A DNA stretch of 43,781 nucleotides from a virus (taxonomy: Duplodnaviria > Heunggongvirae > Uroviricota > Caudoviricetes): positions 1 through 43,781 of the IMG/VR virus record IMGVR_UViG_2547132077_000004, one strand, 5' to 3'. Position 1 is the stretch's first letter. Each line of letters opens with the position of its first letter. Shown here piece by piece: positions 17,822 through 43,476 of the stretch. The translations under genes were made by a program, and so were the position numbers. Under the pieces are notes generated by a model. That model did no database searches. It was given only the letters and a program-made list of their open reading frames with translations, and was not told where the DNA came from.

Positions 17822-18346
17822 TTAATAGCCATCAGAAGTAAGCGCTACAGATTTCAACCCCTCAATGTCATCCTTGGACAGGGCGAACCATTCACCGTGC
17901 TTTCTCTTTGCGGCAAATTTGCGATGAAGCATGTTTTCAGTTTCTCTTCCACCAGGGATCAGGCACTCAAGCTTCAAACAGTCTGGTCCAGAGTTGCCAA
18001 GCGATTTGATGCGTTGTGGAATGTTGGATGAATACCCAATTTTGGTTAGCCCAGTTTTCTTCGATGACAAAACGTATACCTGAGGAGGTTCTTTTCTCTG
18101 GTCTTCCATTACACGTCTCATTGTTGCCATAAGTCCGCCGTGCATCAGCATTTCAACAAAGAACGCTGACCGAACACCTGACGACTTAAGCATGCCAGAA
18201 AATTCACTTGCCAATTCCATTAACTCTGCGATGTTTTCAGGAACTTTTTGGCAGTTATCTTCCTTGTATAAGGAAATCATTCTTTGAAGCTTTTCTTCTA
18301 ATTGGTTCATAGCGTCTTTACCTTTTAGAAAGTGAGCCTGTCTCAC
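17822..18346 (-). CDS. T5orf172/GIY-YIG-like domain protein
   Basis: C-terminal half has VYVLSS..GLTKIGYSSN....R....E....GEWF, resembling the T5orf172 (GIY-YIG superfamily) signature; N-terminal 90 aa unassigned; start may be the internal Met at MNQLEEK. Confidence 0.5.
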   Translation of the reverse strand: MRQAHFLKGKDAMNQLEEKLQRMISLYKEDNCQKVPENIAELMELASEFSGMLKSSGVRSAFFVEMLMHGGLMATMRRVMEDQRKEPPQVYVLSSKKTGLTKIGYSSNIPQRIKSLGNSGPDCLKLECLIPGGRETENMLHRKFAAKRKHGEWFALSKDDIEGLKSVALTSDGY

Positions 18347-18978: not shown

Positions 18979-19472
18979 TGCTGACCCCACAAACAGATTT
19001 CACGCTCAATCTCACGACGAGTCATGAGACCTTTCCATTGCTTACCGCCAGCGTATGTCCAGCGCCGTAGCTGATCACATGCGCCTTTGATATCACCCTG
19101 GTTTATTTTGCGAAGAAGCGTCGATGTTCTGAAATTGCCAGCACCCACGTTGTAGACGAACGAGTAAAGAGCGCCGTGCGTTGTTTCCGGTATATCGACT
19201 TTGATGTACGGGTTAATTTGTCTGGCGACAGTGGCAAGGTCTTTATTCAGGAGGGCTTTGCATTCTGCTTCGGTATACGTTTTACCGAGCATAATGTCTT
19301 TTCCGGTGTGTCCGTAACATACAGTCCATACACCAACTATGTCTTTGTAAGGATTATGTCTCACACCTTCCAGACCATCGTTACCACTTGGGCCAGTGAT
19401 TAACACAGATGCTATAGCAATAGCCCCGCCACCAATAGCAGCAGCAACAGCTTTTCGTAATGATGGAGGCAT
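18975..19472 (-). CDS. R: SAR endolysin (phage-21 R-type lysozyme)
   Basis: 165 aa; N-terminal Gly/Ala-rich signal-anchor-release segment ([18 protein letters not shown]) followed by a T4-lysozyme-like core; overlaps the holin stop. Confidence 0.85.
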
Positions 19473-19687
19473 TATTCACCTCTCGCAGCCTTGCGCTTAT
19501 CTTCTTTAATCTTGAAATAAAGGTTTGTCAGGTACGTCAGCAGGCCAAATACCAAGCTACCCAGCACACCTATTGCTGCCCACTGTGAGGGCGTGACTTT
19601 ATCGAGCAGCTGTAAAAACCAGTAGCCAGCACTGCCTGCGGAGGTGCCGTAGGCAATGCCCGTTGTTAACTTATCCATGGATTTCAT
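19472..19687 (-). CDS. S: Pinholin (phage-21 S-type holin)
   Basis: 71 aa; two TM segments and charged C-terminus; matches S21 in length and pattern. Confidence 0.8.
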
Positions 19688-19782
19688 AGCCTCACCTCCG
19701 CAAATAACGGATGGTGTACACGGTTCGGAACGAAGAGGAAAGGTATAGAAGTTACATTAGCGTAAGGCTTGAACATCTATTC

Positions 19783-19812
19783 AAAAAGAAAAACGCCAGC
19801 GATTATTCTGGC
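19783..19812 (-). terminator. Rho-independent terminator downstream of the AraC-type gene
   Basis: Minus strand reads CGCCAGAATAATCGCTGGCG followed by TTTTTCTTTTT (stem at 19793-19812, T-run at 19783-19792). Confidence 0.5.
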
Positions 19813-19860
19813 GTAGCTGAAAGCATCATACAATTATCAAATACGAAAATTACAAAATCA

Positions 19861-20616
19861 TTAAAACGTATCACGTGACATCATGTCTTTTTCTAAAAAA
19901 AATCTTGATGAATATTGATGGGGAGGAACACCAAAATATCTTCTGAAAACACTTACAAAATATGACGTATTTTCATAACCGCATATCTCAGCAACTTTTC
20001 CAACAGAATATAAATTGTAGCTTAATAACCTTTCCGCCATCACCATTCGCTCTTCAAGAATTAACTTACTAAATGATAAGCCTTCGTGCTTTAATTTTCT
20101 TTTTAACAGACTTTCACTCAGATACAGTCTTGAAGATATATCACAAAGTCTCCATGCTGCAGATATATCCGTGTGAATAATAGCCTTAACTTTACTTCCT
20201 AAACTATTAAGACATCCAAATAAAAAACTTTGCACTATTTTCTCTGAAGATAAGATAGCAAGACATGCAAGTGATATTTGATTTCTAACAAAATCCACAG
20301 TTCTGCCATCACAATTCAAGCATGCAATCAAGTTCTTTAACAATGAAAAATCTTCACATTCCACCATCAAGTATGCCGGATAAAACCTTCTTACAGAAAA
20401 AGGTGAGAGTGTGTTGCTTTTAAAGAAATCATTAACTGTTTTCTCTTCAACATCTACGATCATTACATGATCTATATTTGATGAAAAAAAATCTTTTAAA
20501 TTGTAATCAATGAGAACAGCACTTCCTTTTTTAAACAAAATATCTTCTTTACCAATTCGGGCATCAAACGAGTTCAACACCAAAATGATAGAACATATGT
20601 ATGGCATATTATCCAC
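19861..20616 (-). CDS. AraC/XylS-family transcriptional regulator
   Basis: 251 aa; C-terminal AraC-type double HTH (GKVAEICGYENTSYFVSVFRRYFGVPPHQY); strongly AT-rich. Confidence 0.75.
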   Translation of the reverse strand: MDNMPYICSIILVLNSFDARIGKEDILFKKGSAVLIDYNLKDFFSSNIDHVMIVDVEEKTVNDFFKSNTLSPFSVRRFYPAYLMVECEDFSLLKNLIACLNCDGRTVDFVRNQISLACLAILSSEKIVQSFLFGCLNSLGSKVKAIIHTDISAAWRLCDISSRLYLSESLLKRKLKHEGLSFSKLILEERMVMAERLLSYNLYSVGKVAEICGYENTSYFVSVFRRYFGVPPHQYSSRFFLEKDMMSRDTF

Positions 20617-20956
20617 CTGATATCATTGAGGTTACACCAGGTAAGTATAGGTGGAAAATCAATATTCGCCAGTTCAACAATAAGGAAAATCTCATTGCAT
20701 CACAAGTATAAAATTATGTATTTAACTCACAAAGACAAATTATTAAACCAATCTGTTATATTATATATAGCTGCGTGGAATCATAATATTATATTTTGAC
20801 TGGCATGTTTACCAACTTTAAGTTGCATCTCAATGGTTTCTTCAGCGTAAACAGAGTTTTTATACAAACTGACACTCTGGGTATCATAGTGTAGTTTTTA
20901 CGATTGTAAATATCCTGCATGCAGGAACTCATCCTTTTGGATGATATCGCATACAA

Positions 20957-21916
20957 TTAATTTACCATCAGTCTTAGAGCCAGTTCGTCCGGATAGGGAT
21001 CGAAGTAATTCTGTGTAAGCAAGTAATCATTAGGATACTCACCCAGATAATGCTTCAGCAGAGTCAACGGCGCAAGAAGAGGTAATGTGCCAGAACGATA
21101 GTTAAGTATAACCTCGCTCAACTCTTTACGCTGGCGTGTACTTAAGTAGTTACTAAAATACCCCTGTATATGCATCAGCACATTCGTGTGATTTTTACGT
21201 GATGCAGGTTTTCTGAGAATCGCCATCAGCTTATCACGATACACCTCAAAGTATGATTCAAGGTCCGCCCACTCGTGTATTGCAGCCACAAATGGTCCCA
21301 TATCTTTATAGCCTGCCTGACTATGCGCCAACAACTGAAGCTTATAACGACTATGAAAAGCTAATAACTCTCTTCTTGATAATTTCTCCTTGTAAAGGTG
21401 ATTGAGCTCATGCAAAGCAAAAACTCTTTCAACAAAATTCTCACGAAGCACTGGATCATGTAATCGCCCATCCTCTTCAACCGGTAGCCAGGAAAACTTT
21501 TCCATCAAAGTGCTCGTAAATAGTCCCACTCCATCTTTACGACCTCGATTACCATTTTCATCATAGACACGCACGCGCTCCATACCACAGCTGGGAGATT
21601 TAGCACAAACCACAAACCCCGATACATCCTTTAATTTGTCCATATAAGAACGACTAAACTCTGTCATTCTCTCTGTCACATCCTCATTCTGGTCGTGGCT
21701 GAAACACATCCGTATATTTCCTTGCGTCGAGCGCACAAGACGTAGAGCAGGACGCGGAACTGGCAGCCCTATAGCCATTTCTGGACATACTGGTCTGAAT
21801 GTTACCCATTCCACTAATTTGTCCATTAAAAAGTCAGCTCTTTTGTGACCACCATCAAAACGAACAGCAGAACCGGCCAAACAACCGCTGATTCCAATCA
21901 CAGGTTTTTTTATCAT
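20957..21916 (-). CDS. DUF523/DUF1722 two-domain protein (YbgA-like)
   Basis: 319 aa; N-terminal IGISGCLAG...CPE and C-terminal helical region as in the YbgA family. Family assignment from memory. Confidence 0.55.
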   Translation of the reverse strand: MIKKPVIGISGCLAGSAVRFDGGHKRADFLMDKLVEWVTFRPVCPEMAIGLPVPRPALRLVRSTQGNIRMCFSHDQNEDVTERMTEFSRSYMDKLKDVSGFVVCAKSPSCGMERVRVYDENGNRGRKDGVGLFTSTLMEKFSWLPVEEDGRLHDPVLRENFVERVFALHELNHLYKEKLSRRELLAFHSRYKLQLLAHSQAGYKDMGPFVAAIHEWADLESYFEVYRDKLMAILRKPASRKNHTNVLMHIQGYFSNYLSTRQRKELSEVILNYRSGTLPLLAPLTLLKHYLGEYPNDYLLTQNYFDPYPDELALRLMVN

Positions 21917-22108
21917 ATTCTCCCCCTTGACTAATTCATTAACACATAAACTGTGTAGTGCACGGAATAAATTGCCTTTCTGGCGTCATCACTGACAATT
22001 TTTCTGTTATGGACTATTCCTAATATAGTATGAAAGTTCTTTAAGTGAACGGTCGTAATCATCTATCTTTCATACTTACTCTCAACTATCAAAAGTACAG
22101 GATTTATT

Positions 22109-22633
22109 ATGAAGTTATGGCCTGTGTTGACTGGCATTGCACTCTCTTTCACTCTTATAGCATGTAAGGCCCCGACACCACCTAAAGGTGTGCAGCCGAT
22201 TACAAATTTTGACGCCAACCGCTACCTCGGAAAGTGGTATGAAATAGCTCGCCTCGAGAACCGGTTCGAACGTGGTCTGGAACAGGTCAGCGCTACTTAT
22301 GGAAAACGGAACGACGGAGGGATTCGTGTACTTAACCGTGGATACGATCCAACGAAAAATAAATGGAGCGAGAGCGAAGGTAAAGCATACTTTACTGGAG
22401 ATACTAAAACTGCAGCGTTGAAGGTTTCGTTTTTTGGCCCCTTCTATGGTGGCTATAATGTAATCAAACTGGATGATGAGTATAAGTATGCTCTTGTCAG
22501 TGGTCCGAACAGAGAATATCTATGGATTCTGGCAAGGACCCCAACTATTCCAGATAAAGTAAAAGCAGACTATGTGCGAACCGCTCAAAAGTTGGGATTC
22601 AATGTCAATGAATTATTATGGGTTAAACAATAA
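22109..22633 (+). CDS. blc: Outer-membrane lipocalin (Blc-like lipoprotein)
   Basis: 174 aa; signal peptide with lipobox (LIAC); NFDANRYLGKWYEIARLENRFERGLE and KVSFFGPFYGGYNVI match the bacterial lipocalin Blc signature closely. Confidence 0.85.
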   Translation: MKLWPVLTGIALSFTLIACKAPTPPKGVQPITNFDANRYLGKWYEIARLENRFERGLEQVSATYGKRNDGGIRVLNRGYDPTKNKWSESEGKAYFTGDTKTAALKVSFFGPFYGGYNVIKLDDEYKYALVSGPNREYLWILARTPTIPDKVKADYVRTAQKLGFNVNELLWVKQ

Positions 22634-22659
22634 AATCCCTACTCGAAATAATACTTATT

Positions 22660-22688
22660 AGAAAAAACCAGCCTTTGGGGAGGCTGGC
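22660..22688 (-). terminator. Rho-independent terminator downstream of Q (tR'-like); the hairpin also follows blc on the other strand
   Basis: Stem CCAGCC(22668-22673)/GGCTGG(22682-22687); on the minus strand it is followed by TTTTTT (22662-22667). Confidence 0.55.
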
Positions 22689-22787
22689 TAAATCAGGAAA
22701 CAAGCTGTTATATGATAATAACTACGTTGCGATTCCAACATTTAAAATGTTAGACTAATGACAATCAGACAGCAACTTTTCCTTTAA

Positions 22788-23180
22788 TTATTTCGAACAA
22801 TCAGTATCCATCTCCAATCGGAGATCCAACACCATCAGCATACCCTCCACTACGCCCTCAGCTTTCTGGAGCATCCTGCCAACCCAACAATCAGATCGCC
22901 CATGCTTACGTGCAAGCGCCATAAAAGTCATGCCGCCGACATAATAGTCCACCAATAAATCATGCAAATCGCTGTTGTTCTTTTTCAGACGGGCCATGCA
23001 CCCGCAAATGATCATCGCGTCATCGTCACAACATTGTGGGCGAGATTTTACTTTTGAAGGAATTAATCCCTTAAAACCGGCGGCAATGGACGACCAGGTC
23101 ACATCTTCATGATTATTAGCCGCCCACGCTCCCCAACGCTCAAGAACCATCTGAATATCACGCATCAACTTACTCCACAA
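22788..23180 (-). CDS. Late-gene antiterminator Q (DLP12/phage-82 QuuD type)
   Basis: About 125-130 aa with Cys cluster ([13 protein letters not shown]) typical of short Q proteins; downstream of rusA as in DLP12; start may be the internal MRDIQMV. Confidence 0.7.
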
Positions 23181-23387
23181 AAATCAGACCAGAACGCCAA
23201 TTACAAGCAAAAATCAACAAAACAGTATTAGTTGATTGTTATCTCTGACTTCATACTCCTGCTCCTGTCAGGGTTTTGGCGTAATTCTTCAGTATCCGGT
23301 AATCGGTCAAAACAGAACCGGGGAAACGATATAAGCGCAGGCGCATCCAGCGGTGGCGAAGACGTTCTGCCACATAAAACTCAAACA

Positions 23388-26095: not shown

Positions 26096-27622
26096 TCAAA
26101 AATAAACCTCACCATCAACCATATATTTGAGAGTACTTATCGCCTGCTGGGCGGATATTGTTTTCATTAAAGGATAGTGTTTAAAAACAATGCCATTCAT
26201 AAAATAGATATCACAGGTTTTATTATCTGTATTGATTATGATTTTTTCGAATGTTTTATAGGCAAGTGTACGACATAGCTCTCGCCCATTTTTACTGGTT
26301 AAGTCAATAGCATGAAAATCACCAAGTGAACTCACCGCTTTACTCTTCAAAGTTTTTAATGATACAGAAGCCCTTCGTAATTCCTTATCTAATACTCTGA
26401 TTTTTTCTGCTATAGCGGTAACTTCAGGCGCAACAGATAATGCAGCAATTAAATTATTAATTTTCATCTGGAGCTCAATAATTTTCAACTCTAAAGTTTC
26501 ATTAGCATCTTTCTTGTTTTCAACTGGTTGGATTTTACTACAATTAAAAAGCAACTCATTAATGATATTATAATCAACCAAATCTCTCTTTATTGATGGC
26601 CTGTCACATCGATGCAGTCTTCTCATCGGACAAACATAATAGCCATACAAACTTCCAGATACCGCATGAACAATCATGGTATTACCACAAGCCTCGCACT
26701 TCATAACTGTTCGAAGTAGATTTATCAACATAGGATTTTTGCTACTATTGCTAATACCAAAAGGTGCCAACCGAATTTCCTGTACAGCGTAAAACAAATC
26801 ATCTGATATGACTCTGGGATAATAGCCAGCGATTTCACTTATTCCTTTACCTCTTGCACGATATGAAGGTACGCATATACCTATCAGAGCTTTATTCGCT
26901 AATAATTTTTCAATTACAGAAGGTCCCCATGCACTTTCTTTTCCTGAGAAATTCTTTACAGCATGATCATTTAAATACTTGGCTATTGCATTCAATGAGC
27001 GCCTTTCCATCCTGAGTTTAAAAATTAGCTCAATAGTTTTCACCCTGTCGGGGTCTGGAACAAAAGCCGTTCTTTTGTCATCTAAGGAGAGCCATCTCGG
27101 ACAAGACGCCGTCATAATCGTACCTGATTCCAGTGCATCCTGCCGTTTTTTCTTCCATGATAATTTAACCCGACTTGACTTTATCTCGCTTTCTTCATTT
27201 GCCCTTTGTGCTATAAGTATGGCTTTTATTAATGAATATGGCTCATTCAAAGAGTCAATATTATAGACTGTATTGTCGCAAAGAGTTATAACATCAATAC
27301 CGTGATTCAAAATCAATTTCAGACGTTCAATCGCTTCACCGACTTTTTCTCTTGAAAGTCTGTCCAGACTTTCAACTAACAATGTAGTTCCTGGCAATAT
27401 ATAACCATGCTCTATAGCATCTAAAAATTCCGAAAAAGCTCCTGATTGTGCATGCTTTCCTTTGAATGCACTTAATCCTAAATCTTCATATGTTATGGTA
27501 TCAAGATAATAATCACTATTTACCTTTAACCATTCAGCAATAAGTCTTCTCTGTCGGTTTAATGAGTCGCCAGACATCTGACCTGGTGATGAAAATCGCA
27601 TATATGCTATGGCTTTTTTCAT
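26096..27622 (-). CDS. Large serine recombinase (YbcK-like)
   Basis: 508 aa; N-terminal resolvase catalytic domain (IAYMRFSSPGQ, nucleophile Ser), recombinase domain, Cys-rich zinc-ribbon (CEACGN...C..C) and C-terminal coiled coil; AT-rich. Confidence 0.8.
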   Translation of the reverse strand: MKKAIAYMRFSSPGQMSGDSLNRQRRLIAEWLKVNSDYYLDTITYEDLGLSAFKGKHAQSGAFSEFLDAIEHGYILPGTTLLVESLDRLSREKVGEAIERLKLILNHGIDVITLCDNTVYNIDSLNEPYSLIKAILIAQRANEESEIKSSRVKLSWKKKRQDALESGTIMTASCPRWLSLDDKRTAFVPDPDRVKTIELIFKLRMERRSLNAIAKYLNDHAVKNFSGKESAWGPSVIEKLLANKALIGICVPSYRARGKGISEIAGYYPRVISDDLFYAVQEIRLAPFGISNSSKNPMLINLLRTVMKCEACGNTMIVHAVSGSLYGYYVCPMRRLHRCDRPSIKRDLVDYNIINELLFNCSKIQPVENKKDANETLELKIIELQMKINNLIAALSVAPEVTAIAEKIRVLDKELRRASVSLKTLKSKAVSSLGDFHAIDLTSKNGRELCRTLAYKTFEKIIINTDNKTCDIYFMNGIVFKHYPLMKTISAQQAISTLKYMVDGEVYF

Positions 27623-27878: not shown

Positions 27879-28211
27879 TTAATGTGGTGTGCTTCGTGAC
27901 AATAAATTAATAACCAACACACCGGCACAAATCAACATCATGCCTATAATGGCTGGCAGGTCCAGCCGTTGGCCGAAAAGTCCCCATGACAGTAAGCTAA
28001 TCAGGACAATACCGACTCCTGACCAGATAGCATAAGCAATCCCTGTAGGAATATAAGCCAGCGTCTGAGCTAATAACCAGAATGATGCACAATAACAAAT
28101 AATTGTACCAACAGATGGCCATAACCGTGTAAAACCTTCTGAAAACTTCATTAAGGTTGTACCAATGACCTCTGCAAGTATTGCACCACCAAGATAAATA
28201 TAAGGGTTCAT
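27879..28211 (-). CDS. emrE: Small multidrug resistance (SMR) efflux protein EmrE
   Basis: 110 aa from MNPYIYLGGAILAEVIGTTLMKFSEGF, with the conserved membrane-embedded Glu; near-identical to E. coli EmrE as I recall it. The ORF-track start at 28265 is an upstream extension. Confidence 0.9.
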   Translation of the reverse strand: MNPYIYLGGAILAEVIGTTLMKFSEGFTRLWPSVGTIICYCASFWLLAQTLAYIPTGIAYAIWSGVGIVLISLLSWGLFGQRLDLPAIIGMMLICAGVLVINLLSRSTPH

Positions 28212-28278
28212 AGAATATTCTTTCCTGTTCAAACTGGAGAGAATTGTACTACAGTTTGAACTCAACTCACCTGTTTCA

Positions 28279-34719: not shown

Positions 34720-35964
34720 ATGAACGAGGCAGCAATAATTATTGTCCCAACAGACATCAGCAAGAAAATTCGCGAAATAGAAGAGTCCTACAACAGATAT
34801 ATAAATGAATTTCGCATCCCTAATGATCATAAGATAATCGTGAATTATTCAGCAGGAAAAGACAGCACTGCCACACTCGCAGTGGCGCACACATTATTCG
34901 GCAAACAGGTACATGCTGTTATGGCAGACACGGATAATGAGCATAATCTAACTGTCGAATTCGCCAGGAGCATTCATGAGCAGATCGGTTGTAGCCCTGT
35001 GCAGGTTGTGAAGCGGATTTACACTGAAGAAGATTTTGCCAAACGACGAATTTATCTGCAAAAAAACTGGTCTAAACGACAGATGATCCGCATGGGAGCA
35101 TACCGTGGCATAGTCATGCCTTCCCTCGCACGTTCTGACACCAAATTCGGGCAAGCCTGGAAGCGCACAGCAGAACGCTGGGGAATTGAGTTCGAAACTG
35201 CTCTTGATGCTGCGCTTTCCGTTATGCACCCATCCGGTAATAGCTTTTTGGATTGCTCCCTTCTGCATGGCAAGTTCCCTATGCTGCGCGACCGATTCTG
35301 TACAGACGAACTGAAAATTCAGATAGCTTTCGACGCAGCCATAAAGCCGCTCCTTGATGCTGGCGATGTTATCGTACAATGGTCTGGTGTTCGCGCGGAT
35401 GAGTCCTCTAAGCGCGCTGGATATGAGAGGTTTTCCCGCGATATGCGCGACGCCGATTTTCTCTACAACTTCCTGCCGCTCCACAAATGGACGGCTGAGG
35501 ACGTATTCGCAGTTCACAAATATTTCGGAATTAAGCCAAATCCACTTTATATGCAAGGTGCGTCTCGTGTTGGCTGCATGAATTGCGTGCTATGCAACAA
35601 AGAGGAAATTGCAGAGACGGCTGCGCGCTGGCCAGAGCACATCAAAAAGCACAAACAATGGGAGTTGAAGGTACGCCTTGCTAGTAGATGGGTACACTGG
35701 ATGAGCGTAGGAGAGATAAGCCAACGCTGGATGAAACAGTTCAATCTGCCACTTGGTCGAAATATTCAACTTTTTGGGCTAAAACCTGATGTGCAACACA
35801 TCGACTGGTCAGGATTTTATGGTCCTCGTGGAGATCTTAATTCTCCGGGTGTTTATGAAGTCGTAGAGTGGGCAAAAACAGGGCGCGGTGGCAAGGTCTA
35901 CGATCTTGTAAAAGCAAGTCTCGATATAGAGGTTTGCTCTTCACGCTACGGTCTGTGCGAATAA
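34720..35964 (+). CDS. PAPS-reductase-like (PP-loop ATP-pyrophosphatase superfamily) protein with Cys-rich C-terminal extension
   Basis: 414 aa; PP-loop motif (IIVNYSAGKDSTATLAVAH) near the N-terminus; C-terminal CMNCVLC cluster; same strand as the early-left operon. Confidence 0.65.
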   Translation: MNEAAIIIVPTDISKKIREIEESYNRYINEFRIPNDHKIIVNYSAGKDSTATLAVAHTLFGKQVHAVMADTDNEHNLTVEFARSIHEQIGCSPVQVVKRIYTEEDFAKRRIYLQKNWSKRQMIRMGAYRGIVMPSLARSDTKFGQAWKRTAERWGIEFETALDAALSVMHPSGNSFLDCSLLHGKFPMLRDRFCTDELKIQIAFDAAIKPLLDAGDVIVQWSGVRADESSKRAGYERFSRDMRDADFLYNFLPLHKWTAEDVFAVHKYFGIKPNPLYMQGASRVGCMNCVLCNKEEIAETAARWPEHIKKHKQWELKVRLASRWVHWMSVGEISQRWMKQFNLPLGRNIQLFGLKPDVQHIDWSGFYGPRGDLNSPGVYEVVEWAKTGRGGKVYDLVKASLDIEVCSSRYGLCE

Positions 35965-35975
35965 TACTAAGTTAT

Positions 35976-36578
35976 TTACTCATTATTTTTTGATAATACA
36001 ACTTTCTGCCAAGTTATCTGGTTACGTTGAAAACTATCTTTATTTATTGACGTAACTCGCAATGTTTTCAGACCTAACTGAGACGCTAACTCAAGAAGTT
36101 CCTCAGTATTAACAACGTTAATGTTTCTATCTGGTTCGGGAGGTCCTAAGCGCAATGTAATTATCATTCTCCCATTCAATGTTAAAAGATCAGTTAGCGT
36201 CTCTAGTGAGATTTTTTGCTCTTTTTTTGAAAGATGCATCCATACAGCACTGACTAAAATAAGGTCGAACTTTAGATTCATTGCTTTAACACTATGAAGA
36301 AAAGGCAATGAATCATCTAACCATATAATATGGTTAGATTTATAATATGAAGATGCCAAATTTCGCATCTTTTCACTTGGTTCAACAGCTATTACTTTAT
36401 AACCTAATTCATCTAACGCAGCAGCATCACGGCCGGAACCTGAACCGACATCCAAAGAGACACCCTTAGATTGTAAAATAAACTCTTCAACATCCTGAAA
36501 GATAGAGTAAAAATCAAGTGATATATAATCGGCAAATAAGCGATCAGCATTATTGTCATAAAACTTCCACGAAGTCAC
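35976..36578 (-). CDS. Class I SAM-dependent methyltransferase (small, TehB-like architecture)
   Basis: 200 aa; motif I (LDVGSGSGRDAAALDELGYKVIAVE) and motif post-I/II (FDLILVSAVWMHL); AT-rich; start overlaps the upstream gene by 4 nt. Confidence 0.7.
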   Translation of the reverse strand: MTSWKFYDNNADRLFADYISLDFYSIFQDVEEFILQSKGVSLDVGSGSGRDAAALDELGYKVIAVEPSEKMRNLASSYYKSNHIIWLDDSLPFLHSVKAMNLKFDLILVSAVWMHLSKKEQKISLETLTDLLTLNGRMIITLRLGPPEPDRNINVVNTEELLELASQLGLKTLRVTSINKDSFQRNQITWQKVVLSKNNE

Positions 36579-37207
36579 TTTGATAATCCTGATTTTGCTT
36601 CGATAAATAATCCTGACTCAATATTTTTAATTGTTGCTTTGTATGTATTATGTGAAATGTCTTTTGAAAACAAGTTTGGATGATATACCCCAGCAATATT
36701 AACAAAGAAGCAAACAATAAGCATTACTGCCCAGCACGACACTACTATGTAACCAGTTTCCTTATTATCATAGCTAGAGGGCAATTTAAATCCAGCGTCT
36801 CTAGTAATTTCATTTAAAATATAGTTTTTTGAAGGATCTTCAATGTTTTTTTGTAGTGCTATTTTCGAACCAATTAAAGACCTTAAGCGATAAAGTGTAA
36901 TCATTGTTGTGAAATCAAACAATGCTAACACTGCAAAGATAATCCATAGGGAACTTTCATTTGCCAGTGTTGTTGCATACCACAACCCACCATTGACAGC
37001 AATTACGAAACTAGGGATTTGCCACATGAGCTGATTTAAAGCCCGCATGTGTTGTCCTGCTTCAAGATAAGTAATCTCCTGCAGCTTCTGATACCAACGG
37101 ATTGCCTCAATTTTTAGATTTTCGTTAATCTGTTGCTGTTGCTGATTTACCATGTAATCCCTGCTCAACGAACTGAAACTTTTAATGATGCTATCACAAC
37201 TTATCAA
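36575..37207 (-). CDS. Predicted integral membrane protein (three hydrophobic helices), unknown family
   Basis: 210 aa; soluble N-terminal about 60 aa (poly-Gln QQQQQ) then helices IPSFVIAVNGGLWYATTL, LWIIFAVLALFDFTTMITLY, GYIVVSCWAVMLIVCFFVNIAGVY; translationally coupled to the methyltransferase. Confidence 0.55.
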   Translation of the reverse strand: MISCDSIIKSFSSLSRDYMVNQQQQQINENLKIEAIRWYQKLQEITYLEAGQHMRALNQLMWQIPSFVIAVNGGLWYATTLANESSLWIIFAVLALFDFTTMITLYRLRSLIGSKIALQKNIEDPSKNYILNEITRDAGFKLPSSYDNKETGYIVVSCWAVMLIVCFFVNIAGVYHPNLFSKDISHNTYKATIKNIESGLFIEAKSGLSK

Positions 37208-38066: not shown

Positions 38067-38482
38067 GGCCTGCCAGCTTCTCAAGATATCCAGACCTACA
38101 GCAATCATGTCAATCCAATAAATGGAGACTCCAAGTGGAAGAAGAAATCTTCACTCGTGAAGAGGCTGCGTCGTATCTGAAGGTAGACAAAGGCACTATC
38201 ACGCAGTGGATACGAAGTGGACGACTTCAAGCCGCAAAGATAAATCCAGATAAACCTAAAAGCCCATATCGCATTTGCAAGTCAGACTGCATTGCGGCGC
38301 TTAAGTCTGTGAGACACAATAGCGCGGTGAATGCGGTTGATGTGCAGGAGGTTAAAGCATGTCAATCAAACTGCGCGGTGGCACATGGCACTGCGATTTC
38401 GTCGCGCCAGATGGATCAAGAGTTAGACGCTCTCTTGAAACATCGGACAAGAGGCAAGCGCAAGAACTTCACGATCGTCTGA
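38063..38482 (+). CDS. xis: Excisionase/AlpA-like HTH protein (start uncertain; overlaps int)
   Basis: HTH segment FTREEAASYLKVDKGTITQWIRSGRL immediately upstream of int; the ORF overlaps int by 124 nt in another frame, so the true start, or an alternative start codon, is unresolved. Confidence 0.5.
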   Translation: MRPASFSRYPDLQQSCQSNKWRLQVEEEIFTREEAASYLKVDKGTITQWIRSGRLQAAKINPDKPKSPYRICKSDCIAALKSVRHNSAVNAVDVQEVKACQSNCAVAHGTAISSRQMDQELDALLKHRTRGKRKNFTIV

Positions 38483-39519
38483 AAGCAGAAGCGTGGAGAG
38501 TAAAAAATCTCGGTGAATCACCGAAAAAGCTATTCAAGGAAGCCTGCATACGGTGGCTGCGAGAGAAAGCGGATAAGAAGTCCATTGATGATGACAAGAG
38601 CATTATATCGTTCTGGATGTTGCACTTCAGAGAAACCATTCTCTCTGACATAACAACAGAAAAAATAATGGAGGCGGTAGACGGGATGGAAAACCGCCGC
38701 CATCGCCTGAACTGGGAGATGAGCCGGGATAGGTGTTTGCGGCTTGGCAAGCCAGTGCCGGAGTATAAACCAAAGCTGGCAAGCAAAGGAACGAAGACGC
38801 GGCATCTGGCAATACTTCGCGCTATTCTCAATATGGCTGTTGAATGGGGATGGCTTGACAGGGCGCCCAAAATATCAACACCACGCGTTAAGAATGGACG
38901 AATCAGATGGCTTACAGAGGAGGAATCGAAGCGCCTGTTTGCAGAAATTGCTCCTCATTTCTTCCCTGTGGTCATGTTTGCAATCACGACAGGCCTTCGT
39001 CGTTCCAACGTTACAGACCTTGAGTGGTCACAGGTCGATCTGGATAAGAAAATGGCATGGATGCACCCTGATGAAACAAAAGCTGGCAATGCGATCGGAG
39101 TTCCTCTTAACGAAACCGCATGCCAGATATTAAGAAAACAGCAGGGGCTCCATAAGAGATGGGTATTTGTCCACACCAAACCTGCCTACCGAAGCGACGG
39201 AACAAAAACAGCAGCGGTAAGGAAGATGAGAACCGACAGCAACAAGGCATGGAAGGGAGCGTTAAAGCGGGCAGGCATTAGCAACTTCCGCTTCCATGAC
39301 CTGAGGCATACCTGGGCAAGCTGGCTGGTTCAGTCCGGTGTCTCTCTTCTTGCACTTAAAGAGATGGGAGGATGGGAAACTCTCGAAATGGTTCAAAGAT
39401 ACGCCCACCTTTCAGCCGGGCATCTCACCGAGCACGCGAGCAAAATCGATGCGATTATAAGTCGCAATGGCACAAATACGGCACAAGAGGAGAACGTAGT
39501 TTACTTAAATGCGAGGTAA
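38359..39519 (+). CDS. int: Tyrosine integrase
   Basis: 386 aa; C-terminal catalytic signature (HDLRHTWASWLVQSGVSLLALKEMGGWETLEMVQRYAHL) with R..HxxR..Y; ends 15 bp from the att core. Confidence 0.9.
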   Translation: MSIKLRGGTWHCDFVAPDGSRVRRSLETSDKRQAQELHDRLKAEAWRVKNLGESPKKLFKEACIRWLREKADKKSIDDDKSIISFWMLHFRETILSDITTEKIMEAVDGMENRRHRLNWEMSRDRCLRLGKPVPEYKPKLASKGTKTRHLAILRAILNMAVEWGWLDRAPKISTPRVKNGRIRWLTEEESKRLFAEIAPHFFPVVMFAITTGLRRSNVTDLEWSQVDLDKKMAWMHPDETKAGNAIGVPLNETACQILRKQQGLHKRWVFVHTKPAYRSDGTKTAAVRKMRTDSNKAWKGALKRAGISNFRFHDLRHTWASWLVQSGVSLLALKEMGGWETLEMVQRYAHLSAGHLTEHASKIDAIISRNGTNTAQEENVVYLNAR

Positions 39520-40065: not shown

Positions 40066-41001
40066 CTAAAATAGGTATTCTTTTATTCTGTAAAAATCGG
40101 ATATTTTCTCAAGCGCTGATGTAGGAATGGTTTTTTTGTTTATACTCAAACCTGTTTGTGTATTTTTTAGTTCTGCGATAATGTATTCATCATCAATATA
40201 ATCCTCTCTCTCTCCAATGAAGTTTATTATGAATTCTTTTGCTTTTAAAGCTTTTGTGATGTGATATTTTTCATTGAATAGAATATACACTTTGAAAATA
40301 GAATTGATGTGCTCATTAAAAATCGGCATTATTGGGAAAGATTCATCCATCTGTGTCAGGTCAGTCTTTACCTGACTCCCCCACTTAGAAAATCCACGAA
40401 TCAATTCATCTCTCATGAAATATACGATTAACTCTACAATTAAAGTACTACTGGTTTCATCAAGTGATTTTGATATCGTGTACGAAAGTGGTGGCATTCC
40501 ACAATGCTGAACAAAATTTCTGAGCTTATACATGAATCTATATGAAAACTTGCTATCAAATTCATTTCCCGTCAGCGTTTTAAACTCGACAAATTCCGTT
40601 GAATTAGCCCCATACCTCCTGTTAATACTGGTTTCCATATGGTCAAGTAAAGTTTTCACTGACATCATATAGTTCAGTATTCTTGTATTTAAAAAGAATT
40701 TGAAGGTTTTGAAGGGATATGAACCAATAAAAGAAGGTTCTTCGGCTACTTTTTTAACCGTTTCATCCAGAAGTTCCATTAGTGACTCATAGTTCAATCT
40801 TACATATTCTACTAAGGCAAAATCATTCACAAACTCCATAAGTATATTTTTTTGTGTATCATACACTTCAATTTCCTCATTACTAAGGGGTCTTATTTCA
40901 TTTATCTCGTTTACTTCACTTCCATCTGAAATTGATTCTTTAGCAAGGATTATAGTGGATTCGCTCAAGCTTATCTCCCTGATTAATTTTCTGTTAATCA
41001 A
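40066..41001 (-). CDS. Hypothetical protein, strongly AT-rich, unknown family
   Basis: 311-aa ORF, Asn/Lys/Ile/Glu/Phe-rich, divergent from the DUF262/DUF1524 gene across a 585-bp intergenic region. Confidence 0.45.
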   Translation of the reverse strand: MINRKLIREISLSESTIILAKESISDGSEVNEINEIRPLSNEEIEVYDTQKNILMEFVNDFALVEYVRLNYESLMELLDETVKKVAEEPSFIGSYPFKTFKFFLNTRILNYMMSVKTLLDHMETSINRRYGANSTEFVEFKTLTGNEFDSKFSYRFMYKLRNFVQHCGMPPLSYTISKSLDETSSTLIVELIVYFMRDELIRGFSKWGSQVKTDLTQMDESFPIMPIFNEHINSIFKVYILFNEKYHITKALKAKEFIINFIGEREDYIDDEYIIAELKNTQTGLSINKKTIPTSALEKISDFYRIKEYLF

Positions 41002-41586: not shown

Positions 41587-43476
41587 ATGAAATCCGAAAC
41601 GCTAACCATCCAGCAACTTTTCCAAAATCAACGACAATATCGTGTTCCATTCTATCAACGTGCCTACGTATGGACGCAACAAAACCAATGGTCAGCTTTG
41701 CTGGAGGATATCTTCGAAAAAGCACATAGCCGACTTTTGGGAACAAAACCAACTCCCCATTTCCTTGGCGCGGTGGTGCTGGAACCTCAACTCAAAAACA
41801 GCTTGTTAGGTGTAGATACCATACATATTATTGACGGCCAGCAACGTTTAACCACTCTTCAATATATTCTGGCATCCATTCGATTATCATTGCGTGCTAC
41901 AGGCCTTTCTGATTTGGAAGGGTTAGTATTGACTTGCTTGAAAAATACAAACGAAGCAACTATGCGAAATAAAAAGGTAGAATGCTTCAAACTGTGGCCA
42001 ACTTTTCGAGACCAAACTCATTTTATTCAAAGTTTTAATGTTGAAAACATTGACGATCTCCGTGATGTATTTTCTGATAGCTTCACGCAACATGGTACGT
42101 TACGTAAACATTTCAACCACCCGCCGTCACTAGAGGCATTATGGTTTTTTACTGAAGCCTTTATAAAATGGATTAAAATAGAAAAGTACTCACCACATGA
42201 AAATGCTGTAGCACTAATTGAGGCTGTCTTGACGGATCTGAAACTGGTAAGCATATTTCTCGAAGCTGAAGATGATGCCCAAATAATTTTTGAAACATTA
42301 AATGGCCGAGGGGCGGAACTTCATGCCACGGATCTTATTCGCAACTACATCTTTATGTGCGCTGAGCATGAAAATATTAATGCTATTGAATTATATGAAA
42401 ATGAATGGAAGAGCTTTGAAGATACATACTGGTCGGAAAGGCAACGCCGTGGACGTATTAATAAACCACGCATGGAGTGGCTAGTGCATGCGACATTGCA
42501 ATCAGAAAGGCAACGTGAAATTGATCTGTCTCGTCTTTACAATGAGTATCGTGATTATGTAAGTAAGGACTTGCCTTCACAACGAGCTGATCTGCAAGTA
42601 AAGCGCCTCAAACAATATGCATCACAATATAAAGAATTAGTTGGTGGTTTTGGCACAACCCCCATCTCACACTTTGGACATCGCATCGCAGCCTATGATG
42701 TGACGACACTTTATCCGCTTGCTTTGTTCATTTCGATAGCTAATATCGCCGATGATGAGAAAGCAGCCATGTATAATGATCTTGTCTCCTACGTAGTACG
42801 AAGAGCCGTATGTGGCCTGACGCCAAAGAATTACAACAATGTATTTATGAATGTATTGCGGCACTTGTCTAAAACGGAAATTTCCAGTGTTGAGTTACGT
42901 AATATCCTCAATAGCTTAAATGGCGAAGCCTCACGTTGGCCTGGTGACTCAGAATTTCTCAATGCTTGCATCAATGCTCCACTTTATCCTGGCAGGCTCG
43001 ACGCACCGAAAATGCGCTCAATGTTAACGGAACTTGAAAGAGAACTTTGTCGCCAAGTGAAGACAGAGAAGCCTGATGTTCCAAATCTTTCCAATCTCGA
43101 TATCGATCATCTTATGCCTCAAAGTTGGTATTCCTGTTGGCCTCTCGAAAATGGTCATATGGTGACAAATTCAGATGCAACGGTATTGAACCAAATTGTT
43201 CTGTCTGGAACAGATCTTACCCCTGAGCAGCTACTGGTAAGGAAACGGCAACAAGCGATAGCTACGTTGGGAAATCTAACTTTGCTTAACCTTAGCGTAA
43301 ACCGTTCTGTTCAGAATGCTGTATTTCTGAAAAAACGTGATGCTCTCATCGTCCACACCAATCTACGACTGAACATACCACTTATACTTAAGGATAAATG
43401 GGATGAGGGTGAAATCCTGAAGCGGGGTAAAAAGTTGGGGGAAATTGCATTGAAAGTATGGCCAAAACACGATTAA
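41587..43476 (+). CDS. DUF262 (ParB-like NTPase) + DUF1524 (His-Me finger nuclease) protein, GmrSD-family type IV restriction enzyme-like
   Basis: 629 aa; N-terminal YRVPFYQRAYVWT and IIDGQQRLTTLQ (DUF262 DGQQR motif); C-terminal LDIDHLMPQSW ... LGNLTLLNLSVNRSVQN (DUF1524-like). Confidence 0.75.
   Translation: MKSETLTIQQLFQNQRQYRVPFYQRAYVWTQQNQWSALLEDIFEKAHSRLLGTKPTPHFLGAVVLEPQLKNSLLGVDTIHIIDGQQRLTTLQYILASIRLSLRATGLSDLEGLVLTCLKNTNEATMRNKKVECFKLWPTFRDQTHFIQSFNVENIDDLRDVFSDSFTQHGTLRKHFNHPPSLEALWFFTEAFIKWIKIEKYSPHENAVALIEAVLTDLKLVSIFLEAEDDAQIIFETLNGRGAELHATDLIRNYIFMCAEHENINAIELYENEWKSFEDTYWSERQRRGRINKPRMEWLVHATLQSERQREIDLSRLYNEYRDYVSKDLPSQRADLQVKRLKQYASQYKELVGGFGTTPISHFGHRIAAYDVTTLYPLALFISIANIADDEKAAMYNDLVSYVVRRAVCGLTPKNYNNVFMNVLRHLSKTEISSVELRNILNSLNGEASRWPGDSEFLNACINAPLYPGRLDAPKMRSMLTELERELCRQVKTEKPDVPNLSNLDIDHLMPQSWYSCWPLENGHMVTNSDATVLNQIVLSGTDLTPEQLLVRKRQQAIATLGNLTLLNLSVNRSVQNAVFLKKRDALIVHTNLRLNIPLILKDKWDEGEILKRGKKLGEIALKVWPKHD

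Follow-up and report, generated by a model that had tools for sequence, protein, structure and literature searches.

Layout of the Q-S interval

The DNA analysed here is a virus record of IMG/VR (IMGVR_UViG_2547132077_000004; Caudoviricetes; positions 1 to 43,781), and the whole stretch of 43,781 nt is referred to as the window. We describe the interval between the late-gene antiterminator gene Q and the holin gene S of this lambdoid prophage. Its late genes are read on the minus strand, and in the direction of late transcription the order is Q, a spacer of 98 nt, a hairpin with a U-run, a lipocalin gene on the opposite strand, rudS (coding for a DUF523/DUF1722 fusion protein), an AraC-type regulator gene, a second hairpin with a U-run, and the lysis genes S, R and Rz (Table 1). 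Between the stop of Q and the start of S lie 3,100 bp. The original prediction for this sequence had proposed a Q-to-S interval of about 3 kb with three passenger genes, namely a lipocalin on the plus strand, a DUF523/DUF1722 protein and a strongly AT-rich AraC-type gene. All three are present according to the list of open reading frames (ORFs) and to Pfam, and the regulator gene has a GC content of 31.9%, compared to 48.5% for the whole window. The fusion gene (43%) and the lipocalin gene (44%) are also below the average of the window, and the spacer of 349 bp between rudS and araC is AT-rich. The two hairpins that had been noticed exist within about 10 nt of the predicted positions, but both had to be reassigned as terminators of the minus strand, on which the late genes lie.

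Table 1 Features of the Q-S interval and its borders. Positions refer to the window; features are listed in the direction of late transcription.
Feature	Positions	Strand	Details
Late-gene antiterminator Q	22788-23165 (mechanical ORF to 23180)	-	125 aa, annotated ATG in relatives; PF06530, E 2.5e-51
Putative late promoter pR' and Q-loading region	22690-22787	-	directly after Q
tR'-like intrinsic terminator	22666-22689	-	9-bp stem (5 GC pairs), U6; -15.6 kcal/mol, z = -4.2
Blc-type lipocalin, predicted outer-membrane lipoprotein	22109-22633	+ (antisense to late transcription)	174 aa; PF08212, E 7e-44
Divergent lipocalin-rudS intergenic region, presumed divergent promoters	21917-22108	.	192 bp, 34% GC
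RudS, TudS (DUF523) fused to DUF1722	20957-21916	-	319 aa; PF04463, E 3e-40; PF08349, E 2e-40
Sigma-70-like promoter candidate for araC	20883-20910	-	TTTACA-16-TATGAT; 10/12 consensus matches
AraC/XylS-type regulator, prophage PatE/Psr/AppY/YdeO clade	19861-20607	-	248 aa, 31.9% GC; PF12833, E 1e-14; PF00165
T8 homopolymer in araC, frameshift hot spot	20484-20491	-	codons 39-42 (gene positions 117-124); length variation among loci
Intrinsic terminator between araC and S	19793-19814	-	7-bp stem (5 GC pairs), U5CU5; -12.1 kcal/mol, z = -2.2
Class II holin S (EssD type)	19472-19687	-	first lysis gene, right cargo boundary; PF04971, E 2e-35

Q is 87.5% identical to QuuD of Escherichia coli K-12 and 97.6% identical to Q of phage 1H12, with a distant sequence match (E 1.9e-8) to the Q21 structures 6P18/6JNX, while the holin is 98.6% identical to EssD of K-12. 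A tRNA scan found no tRNA gene in the window. Thus, the slot is devoid of tRNA genes, unlike that of Shiga toxin (Stx) phages and of Sp4. Rfam searches of the whole window at gathering thresholds, and of positions 19400-23300 at E ≤ 1, did not return a credible RNA family, the sole weak match being one that overlaps the tR' hairpin. None of the three block proteins matched a defence model of PADLOC. In PHROGs each of the three has a family of its own, all labelled 'unknown function' (phrog_1450 in the case of the regulator).

Occurrence in phages, prophages and E. coli genomes

Of 5426 complete E. coli genomes, 1156 (21%) match the block consisting of these three genes, and 999 (18%) have a match that extends over at least 80% of its length. 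The E. coli copies are almost always chromosomal. In addition, the block is found in 12 isolated coliphages, with 98.9% identity in IdasGreatGrand and 89.8% identity in 1H12 and the Lambda_ev series, and it is located between Q and the holin gene in both of the isolated phages that were annotated here (1H12, IdasGreatGrand). The order Q, lipocalin (opposite strand), rudS, araC, S is kept in 72 of 80 viral contigs from IMG/VR. As the block is found in isolated phages, it represents phage cargo. The original prediction had allowed for a stretch of core chromosome flanked by two separate phage remnants, and this is ruled out by the copies which isolated phages carry in the same slot.

The closest relatives of the window are complete DLP12-type prophages integrated at argU/intD, which also carry emrE and ybcK. 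As there is no tRNA gene in the window, the copy analysed here may not be at argU, unlike these relatives. The block is carried by prophages of both the DLP12 and the Qin type. Qin-type remnants with the block occur in E. coli HS and in E. coli B REL606, the latter having a rudS gene that is split by IS3.

In the DLP12 prophage of K-12, nmpC occupies exactly the same slot. Homology to K-12 stops at position 22805 of the window, within the 3' end of Q, and restarts at position 19698, which is 11 nt before the start of S. In an Stx2k phage the slot contains, between Q and the holin gene, an AraC-type gene, three tRNAs and stx2AB. The prediction that this is the slot where Stx phages hold stx and DLP12 holds a porin is thus correct. 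In Stx phages, stx1/stx2 are the cargo of the lambdoid Q-S slot, and cspB/cspF are the corresponding cargo in Qin of K-12. The block shares with stx and nmpC the position after Q, pR' and tR' and before S, as well as the sharp replacement junctions. It is unlike other cargo of this slot in consisting of three genes in mixed orientation, with the lipocalin gene antisense to the late transcript. As is typical of a moron, the block lies between Q/pR'/tR' and S and is swapped for other cargo in relatives. The terminator after araC and a predicted, conserved promoter-like site may be signals of its own, and its GC content is 32-44% compared to 48.5% for the window.

Two short contigs (L068 and L073) of a metagenome-assembled genome assigned to 'Candidatus Nanosynbacter' (Saccharibacteria) also hold the block, with 94-100% protein identity. 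They are almost certainly a binning contaminant.

The middle gene, a predicted RudS

The fusion of TudS (DUF523) with DUF1722 was named RudS in 2024 and removes 4-thiouridine (s4U) from tRNA (Jamontas et al. 2024, PMC11417400). Both domains are present on the protein encoded by the middle gene (PF04463 at residues 7-149, PF08349 at residues 192-309). Over all 319 residues the protein is 93.4% identical (21 differences) to RudS_vir (H3V29_gp66) from phage 1H12, which has the same length, the same cluster cysteines and the same neighbours (Q, lipocalin, AraC-type gene, holin). Cys12, Cys44 and Cys110 are found at the positions of the RudS_vir cluster ligands (Table 1 of PMC11417400). Glu46, Ser107, Ser109 and Arg55 have the same offsets from the cysteines as the catalytic residues Glu51, Ser111, Ser113 and Arg60 of RudS_KT, and by this correspondence they are the putative catalytic residues. 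As judged from its sequence, the middle gene codes for RudS, a [4Fe-4S] tRNA 4-thiouridine desulfidase.

When overexpressed in E. coli, RudS_vir lowered the s4U content of tRNA, and among all RudS proteins tested it conferred the shortest lag on 4-thiouracil (PMC11417400). RudS overexpression is described to lessen the growth delay caused by ultraviolet A (UVA), and the RudS paper mentions a MerR-type control of RudS (PMC11417400). That paper states E. coli to be without RudS. This is true for K-12 but does not apply to those complete genomes (21%) which match the block. RudS_vir was there treated as an isolated gene (PMC11417400); its context within the block is added here.

The lipocalin

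The lipocalin scores 316 bits against the NCBIfam model of the Blc subfamily (NF007786), well above the cut-off of 267, and matches Blc chains from PDB with E 3.5e-69. It resembles E. coli Blc (PDB 1QWD, 2ACO, 3MBT) in having the Lipocalin_2 fold, a putative lipobox and an equal length. The N-terminus, MKLWPVLTGIALSFTLIAC followed by K, contains a lipobox-like L-I-A-C at residues 16-19 with Lys at position +2, as assigned by eye. In contrast to the chromosomal Blc of E. coli it is phage-borne, and it is only 64% identical to the mature form of that protein (structure 3MBT). A higher level of identity (77-82% for full-length matches) is found to the RudS-adjacent lipocalins of Enterobacter, Leclercia and C. 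sedlakii.

The protein is identical to WP_000780581.1, which was detected by proteomics in E. coli CCUG 70745 in a 2026 study, where it is classed as an outer membrane protein by prediction and where it was found among the envelope-stress lipoproteins, being 2.0- and 3.0-fold up after 15 min of meropenem (PMC13459554). Due to this identity, at least the lipocalin gene is expressed in a lysogen. A moron named 'blc' has been described for more than half of 19 lambda-like phages from the infant gut (PMC6969025).

The AraC-type regulator

The regulator carries the C-terminal double helix-turn-helix domain of AraC-type proteins (PF12833 over residues 161-237 of the 251-aa ORF). This domain matches the DNA-binding domain of GadX (3MKL) both by sequence (E 1.7e-20) and in a fold search (TM score 0.86-0.90, root mean square deviation 1.5-1.7 Å). 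The AlphaFold2 model (mean confidence, pLDDT, 82.7) aligns over the full length with CsvR, Rns and ToxT, and predicts a beta-rich N-terminal domain followed by two helix-turn-helix motifs. The best NCBIfam match is YdeO (NF007407), aligned over the full length (1-237) with 130 bits. As the cut-off of this equivalog is 348 bits, the regulator does not qualify as an orthologue of YdeO.

Over more than 90% of the length in each case, the regulator is 53% identical to ECs_0287 from strain Sakai, 39% identical to PsrA (ECs_1087, extended ORF) and 32% identical to AppY. ECs_0287 is probably PatE (Z0321, OI-8), since it is the only AraC-type gene in Sakai Sp1/CP-933H. A 'PatE homologue' has also been overexpressed in E. 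coli Nissle (CIW80_12240, bioRxiv 2025.08.01.668021), but its number gave no link to the regulator, as RS12240 in RefSeq is bcsZ. Together with PatE, PsrA, PsrB, AppY and YdeO, all of which are prophage-borne except for the host gene ydeO, the regulator shares a length of about 240-250 aa, a high AT content and an N-terminus of the type M..CS(V/I)I. PatE, PsrA/B and AppY activate gadE and/or hdeA and raise acid resistance, and PsrA/B and PatE in addition repress the enterocyte effacement locus (LEE) (PMC10877973, PMC10057817). Prophage-encoded AraC regulators which rewire acid-resistance and virulence genes of the host are thus an established class. By analogy to these relatives, the regulator is most likely an activator of host regulons, its targets being extrapolated from those of the PatE/Psr/AppY clade. 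Within the clade it belongs to a distinct subgroup, of which the nearest relatives are uncharacterised, and its close relatives form a narrow group centred on E. coli.

Members of the clade differ in their genome position. The psrA gene is located just downstream of Q in Sakai Sp4, where the locus has been rearranged by insertion sequences (IS), and a PsrA-like gene occurs between Q and the holin gene in the Stx2k phage. PatE and AppY are encoded beyond the tail-fibre genes, while the regulator from the window is in the Q-S slot.

PsrA is annotated as a protein of 195 aa (ECs_1087, contig L015, 18678-19391), starting at an internal Met. An in-frame ATG is found upstream, which extends the protein to about 237 aa with the N-terminus MVVVCSVIMV..., matching the rest of the clade. 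For this reason, the deposited PsrA annotation is probably truncated.

Composite origin of the block

Among 64 enterobacterial chromosomal RudS loci, 43 have a lipocalin match upstream on the opposite strand (69-82% identity; 2 of the 43 are partial), and RudS is 66-77% identical in these lipocalin-linked loci. The lipocalin and RudS genes are direct neighbours in C. sedlakii and Citrobacter sp. JGM124, as they are in the phage. In E. cloacae, the divergently oriented lipocalin gene is followed by genes for a MerR/MlrA-like regulator, a transthyretin-like protein and RudS. In many Enterobacteriaceae, chromosomal RudS loci linked to MerR/LitR-type regulators (the group that comprises Salmonella STM1389/ORF319, E. 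cloacae, and phrB-litR-rudS of Pseudomonas) thus have RudS combined with a divergent lipocalin. Compared to the chromosomal loci, the phage copy is devoid of the MerR/MlrA-like regulator and of the transthyretin-like gene, it has an unrelated intergenic region, and its GC content at third codon positions (GC3) is much lower. When regulatory DNA shared between the lipocalin-rudS intergenic regions from phage and chromosome (Citrobacter) was sought, no conservation was found.

In the chromosomal locus from E. cloacae (contig L041, 4663-5898) and in many loci from Enterobacter and Leclercia, a MerR gene with MlrA-type helical and C-terminal domains and a gene of the transthyretin/HIUase family precede RudS. 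The set of lipocalin, MerR, transthyretin-like protein and RudS recurs across genera.

The regulator gene has a distribution of its own. Homologues of araC (56-64% identity) are found directly after Q genes of other families with neither rudS nor a lipocalin gene (contigs L009 and L010); the homologue is followed by the holin gene in L010, while contig L009 breaks off where S begins. With a phage that bears araC without rudS and lipocalin, one continuous alignment extends over the 3' half of araC, the terminator and S. PatE-like copies are located beyond the tail-fibre genes, as is appY in DLP12. The block is thus a composite of two separately mobile units. The first would be the divergent lipocalin-RudS pair, taken from an enterobacterial chromosomal locus, in which RudS belongs to an operon behind a MerR/MlrA-type regulator, but leaving this regulator behind. 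The second would be the AT-rich gene of the AraC-type regulator, which brings along a conserved promoter-like site and a terminator of its own.

As the pair has lost its chromosomal regulator, and as its intergenic region bears no relation to that of the chromosome, it might be argued that the AraC-type protein is a local replacement for the MerR-type regulator and controls rudS and the lipocalin gene rather than host regulons. That araC adjoins the pair in 72 of the 80 viral contigs would fit to this idea. However, the homologues after Q have no such pair nearby, PatE-like copies are located beyond the tail-fibre genes, the characterised relatives act on gadE/hdeA of the host (PMC10877973, PMC10057817), and strains which have lost araC through IS elements retain rudS and the lipocalin gene intact. 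We consider a local regulator to be very unlikely and retain the interpretation as a regulator of host genes.

Selection, gene decay and the T8 tract

Across the three alleles compared (window, 1H12, HS), the ratio of nonsynonymous to synonymous substitution rates (dN/dS) is 0.21-0.26 for araC, 0.11-0.17 for rudS and 0.06-0.11 for the lipocalin gene, similar to the values for Q and S (0.05-0.13), with dS reaching 0.6. Such values argue against pseudogenes, and all three genes are listed in the annotated examples. The original prediction had asked if the genes might be silent pseudogenes, with frameshifts in related strains. This is contradicted by the purifying selection on all three genes and by the detection of the lipocalin protein. 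Frameshifts of araC and IS insertions are confined to a minority of strains.

The frameshifts occur in the T8 homopolymer at codons 39-42 of araC. In 56 related araC loci, this tract was found to be T8 in 46 cases, T7 in 7, T6 in 2 and T9 in one. The gene is in frame in the window, and the off-frame copies are found on several SNP (single-nucleotide polymorphism) backgrounds. A large protein cluster (P0011, 195 aa) represents the araC ORF restarted at Met49. The tract is missing from 1H12- and HS-type alleles. We therefore rejected it as a conserved contingency locus, as these alleles encode the same residues without the tract, and read it as a mutational hot spot instead of a conserved switch. 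The length variation as such could reflect a mutational hot spot, phase variation or, in part, sequencing error.

These disruptions raise the question if the block might be selectively neutral baggage that decays slowly and is kept only by its position between Q and S, which are both needed. About 18% of the window-type araC copies are frameshifted at the T8 tract, a minority of genomes has IS insertions or deletions, and K-12 as well as other phages do with different cargo in this slot. On the other hand, selection on the block genes is as strong as indicated by the dN/dS values given above, at least 80% of the block is matched in 999 genomes, with all three genes in the annotated examples, the block is retained in prophage remnants where linkage of Q and S does not matter any more, and the lipocalin is produced as a protein that reacts to envelope stress (PMC13459554). 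It is quite improbable that neutral baggage would behave in this way, and we maintain that the block is functional cargo.

Transcription signals and proposed operation

The stretch between Q and the first hairpin, in which pR' is presumed to reside, has the motif ATATAACAG in common with the K-12 sequence downstream of quuD, and it is almost the same in 1H12 and IdasGreatGrand. The tR'-like hairpin is conserved in phage alleles. It forms also on the plus strand but lacks a U tract there, so that it would at best be a weak terminator for the lipocalin gene. The terminator between araC and S is kept, with altered loop and stem, in the 1H12, HS and L010 alleles. Two terminator-like sites were observed in the region while 2.9 are expected from shuffling. 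As this count is not above chance, the significance of the terminators rests on their position and on their conservation in related alleles.

The divergent lipocalin-rudS region is conserved among phage alleles and contains weaker promoter-like sites on the minus strand (candidates at 22085-22058 and 22049-22022). The stronger candidate precedes araC, and neither of its hexamers varies between three alleles whose divergence over the block is 6-10%. This candidate would give rise to an AT-rich leader of about 270 nt.

Based on these signals we propose the following mode of operation. In the lysogen, a short RNA that ends at the tR'-like hairpin (22689-22666) would arise from a constitutive late promoter immediately behind Q. 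Lipocalin and regulator, possibly together with RudS, would be expressed from their own promoters and would cause lysogenic conversion, while the terminator at 19814-19793 would keep cargo transcription out of the holin gene. Upon induction, Q-modified polymerase would pass both terminators and proceed into S, R and Rz, giving a Q-dependent boost to rudS and araC in sense orientation and crossing the lipocalin gene in antisense orientation. As to the products, RudS would remove the sulfur of 4-thiouridine in tRNA, the lipocalin would act as a Blc-type outer-membrane lipoprotein and the regulator, like others of its clade, might activate the gadE/hdeA regulon. Read-through by Q and, except for the lipocalin, expression in the lysogen are proposed by analogy to other systems.

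The arrangement would also be compatible with a mainly lytic role. In that case rudS, perhaps with the whole minus-strand pair, would be an auxiliary gene on the Q-dependent late transcript and would not serve lysogenic conversion. RudS might then remove s4U from the tRNA of the host, or recover thiolated uracil or UMP when tRNA is degraded. It could, for example, sustain translation after UV, which not only induces the prophage but also cross-links s4U8 to C13. Several observations point in this direction: rudS and araC are oriented like the late genes, the stretch from the tR'-like hairpin to rudS showed no terminator-like site, the MerR-type regulator of chromosomal RudS is missing, and RudS_vir combines the shortest lag on 4-thiouracil with a weaker activity on tRNA (PMC11417400). 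The lessened UVA growth delay described for RudS overexpression would also be in accord. However, the block with an intact rudS persists in heavily decayed prophages which are unable to grow lytically (ES9 and the Qin remnant of E. coli HS), and directly upstream of rudS there is a conserved intergenic region with promoter-like sites. A mainly lytic function is therefore considered unlikely, if less so than the two alternatives discussed above, and expression in the lysogen remains our preferred interpretation.

Assessment

Taken together, we consider it reasonably probable that the Q-S interval is a composite moron cargo within an intact DLP12-type lambdoid prophage of E. coli, made up of two units, the lipocalin-RudS pair and the AraC-type regulator. 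Gene identities, synteny, distribution, purifying selection, the activity of a RudS with 93% identity and the presence of the lipocalin protein have been shown, while promoters, expression timing, regulator targets and any fitness benefit are what we infer.

Several points speak against this interpretation. The tRNA desulfidase activity of RudS_vir was below that of other RudS proteins despite good expression (PMC11417400). GC3 is about 0.40 for rudS and the lipocalin gene of the phage but 0.59-0.78 for their chromosomal orthologues, so that the capture of the pair must be old and not recent. With identities of only 53%, 39% and 32% to characterised relatives, and with a score below the YdeO cut-off, the regulon of the AraC-type protein is extrapolated, and the equation of ECs_0287 with PatE is based on position and not on a published sequence. 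For the late promoter, a consensus scan of 22690-22787 and the alignment to K-12 did not reveal a strong sigma-70 match; the -35 element and the spacing are unconvincing and pR' was not located. Finally, a minority of genomes has IS1/IS3/IS5 insertions or deletions, mostly hitting araC or rudS, and about 18% of the window-type araC copies are out of frame at the T8 tract. Frameshifts of araC and IS-mediated losses of araC and rudS indicate that loss is tolerated.

Other genes in the window

A 414-aa protein with a phosphoadenosine phosphosulfate (PAPS) reductase domain is encoded after exo (34720-35964, plus strand) and has weak PADLOC matches to SspD, BrxP and DndC. Close to it on the opposite strand are genes for an S-adenosylmethionine (SAM) methyltransferase and for a 210-aa protein with no Pfam match (35976-36578 and 36575-37207, both minus strand). 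The annotation of the closest relative, from strain 500111 (contig L002), does not list genes of the PAPS-reductase/methyltransferase type after exo. These genes may form a module for DNA modification or anti-defence within the early-left operon.

Beyond the integrase gene (38359-39519), a GmrSD-type (type IV) restriction endonuclease with N- and C-terminal domains is encoded (41587-43476, plus strand). The neighbouring 311-aa ORF (40066-41001, minus strand) has no Pfam match.

Between Rz and a DUF1398 gene, a 174-aa GIY-YIG/T5orf172 (MUG113) protein is encoded (17822-18346, minus strand), which PADLOC weakly matches to the candidate system PDC-S57 (E 8e-6). In the close relative 500111, this position is occupied by no more than a small hypothetical gene.

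The nin region contains emrE, coding for an efflux pump of the small multidrug resistance type (27879-28265, minus strand), and the large serine recombinase gene ybcK (26096-27622, minus strand), as does DLP12 of K-12. The presence of emrE in lambda-like phages has been noted previously (Mathieu et al. 2020, PMC6969025).

Biological implications

Each component of the block belongs to a family which has already been described, and RudS_vir as well as the blc moron had been noticed in phages before. The current understanding of lambdoid morons is not changed by this block. What is new is modest: the extent to which RudS is carried in E. coli, the origin of the block from two units, and a regulator subgroup with a frameshift-prone tract.

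A bolder reading, which we consider very doubtful, is that the lipocalin-RudS pair is a module against near-UV and photo-oxidative stress, which has been deprived of its MerR regulator, responsive to light or stress, and put downstream of Q so that s4U is erased upon UV-type induction. If this were true, erasure of s4U would blunt the stringent response (guanosine tetraphosphate, ppGpp) that is triggered by cross-links and slows lytic growth. The lysogen would gain a trait that K-12 lacks, as it would evade the UVA growth delay and, with a PatE-like regulator, have acid and envelope tolerance as well, and the T8 tract of the regulator gene could act as an on/off switch.

In summary, the block provides a clean example of how cargo of the Q-S slot is assembled, with a chromosomal stress-gene pair, minus its regulator, joined to a mobile AraC unit. 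The K-12-centred view of RudS is corrected, as about one in five complete E. coli genomes matches the RudS-bearing block, including HS and, with an IS-disrupted gene, REL606. As rudS is carried by prophages, E. coli strains may differ in the s4U level of their tRNA and in their UVA growth delay. Given these carriage figures, some of the differences in acid resistance between strains could be due to the regulator subgroup.

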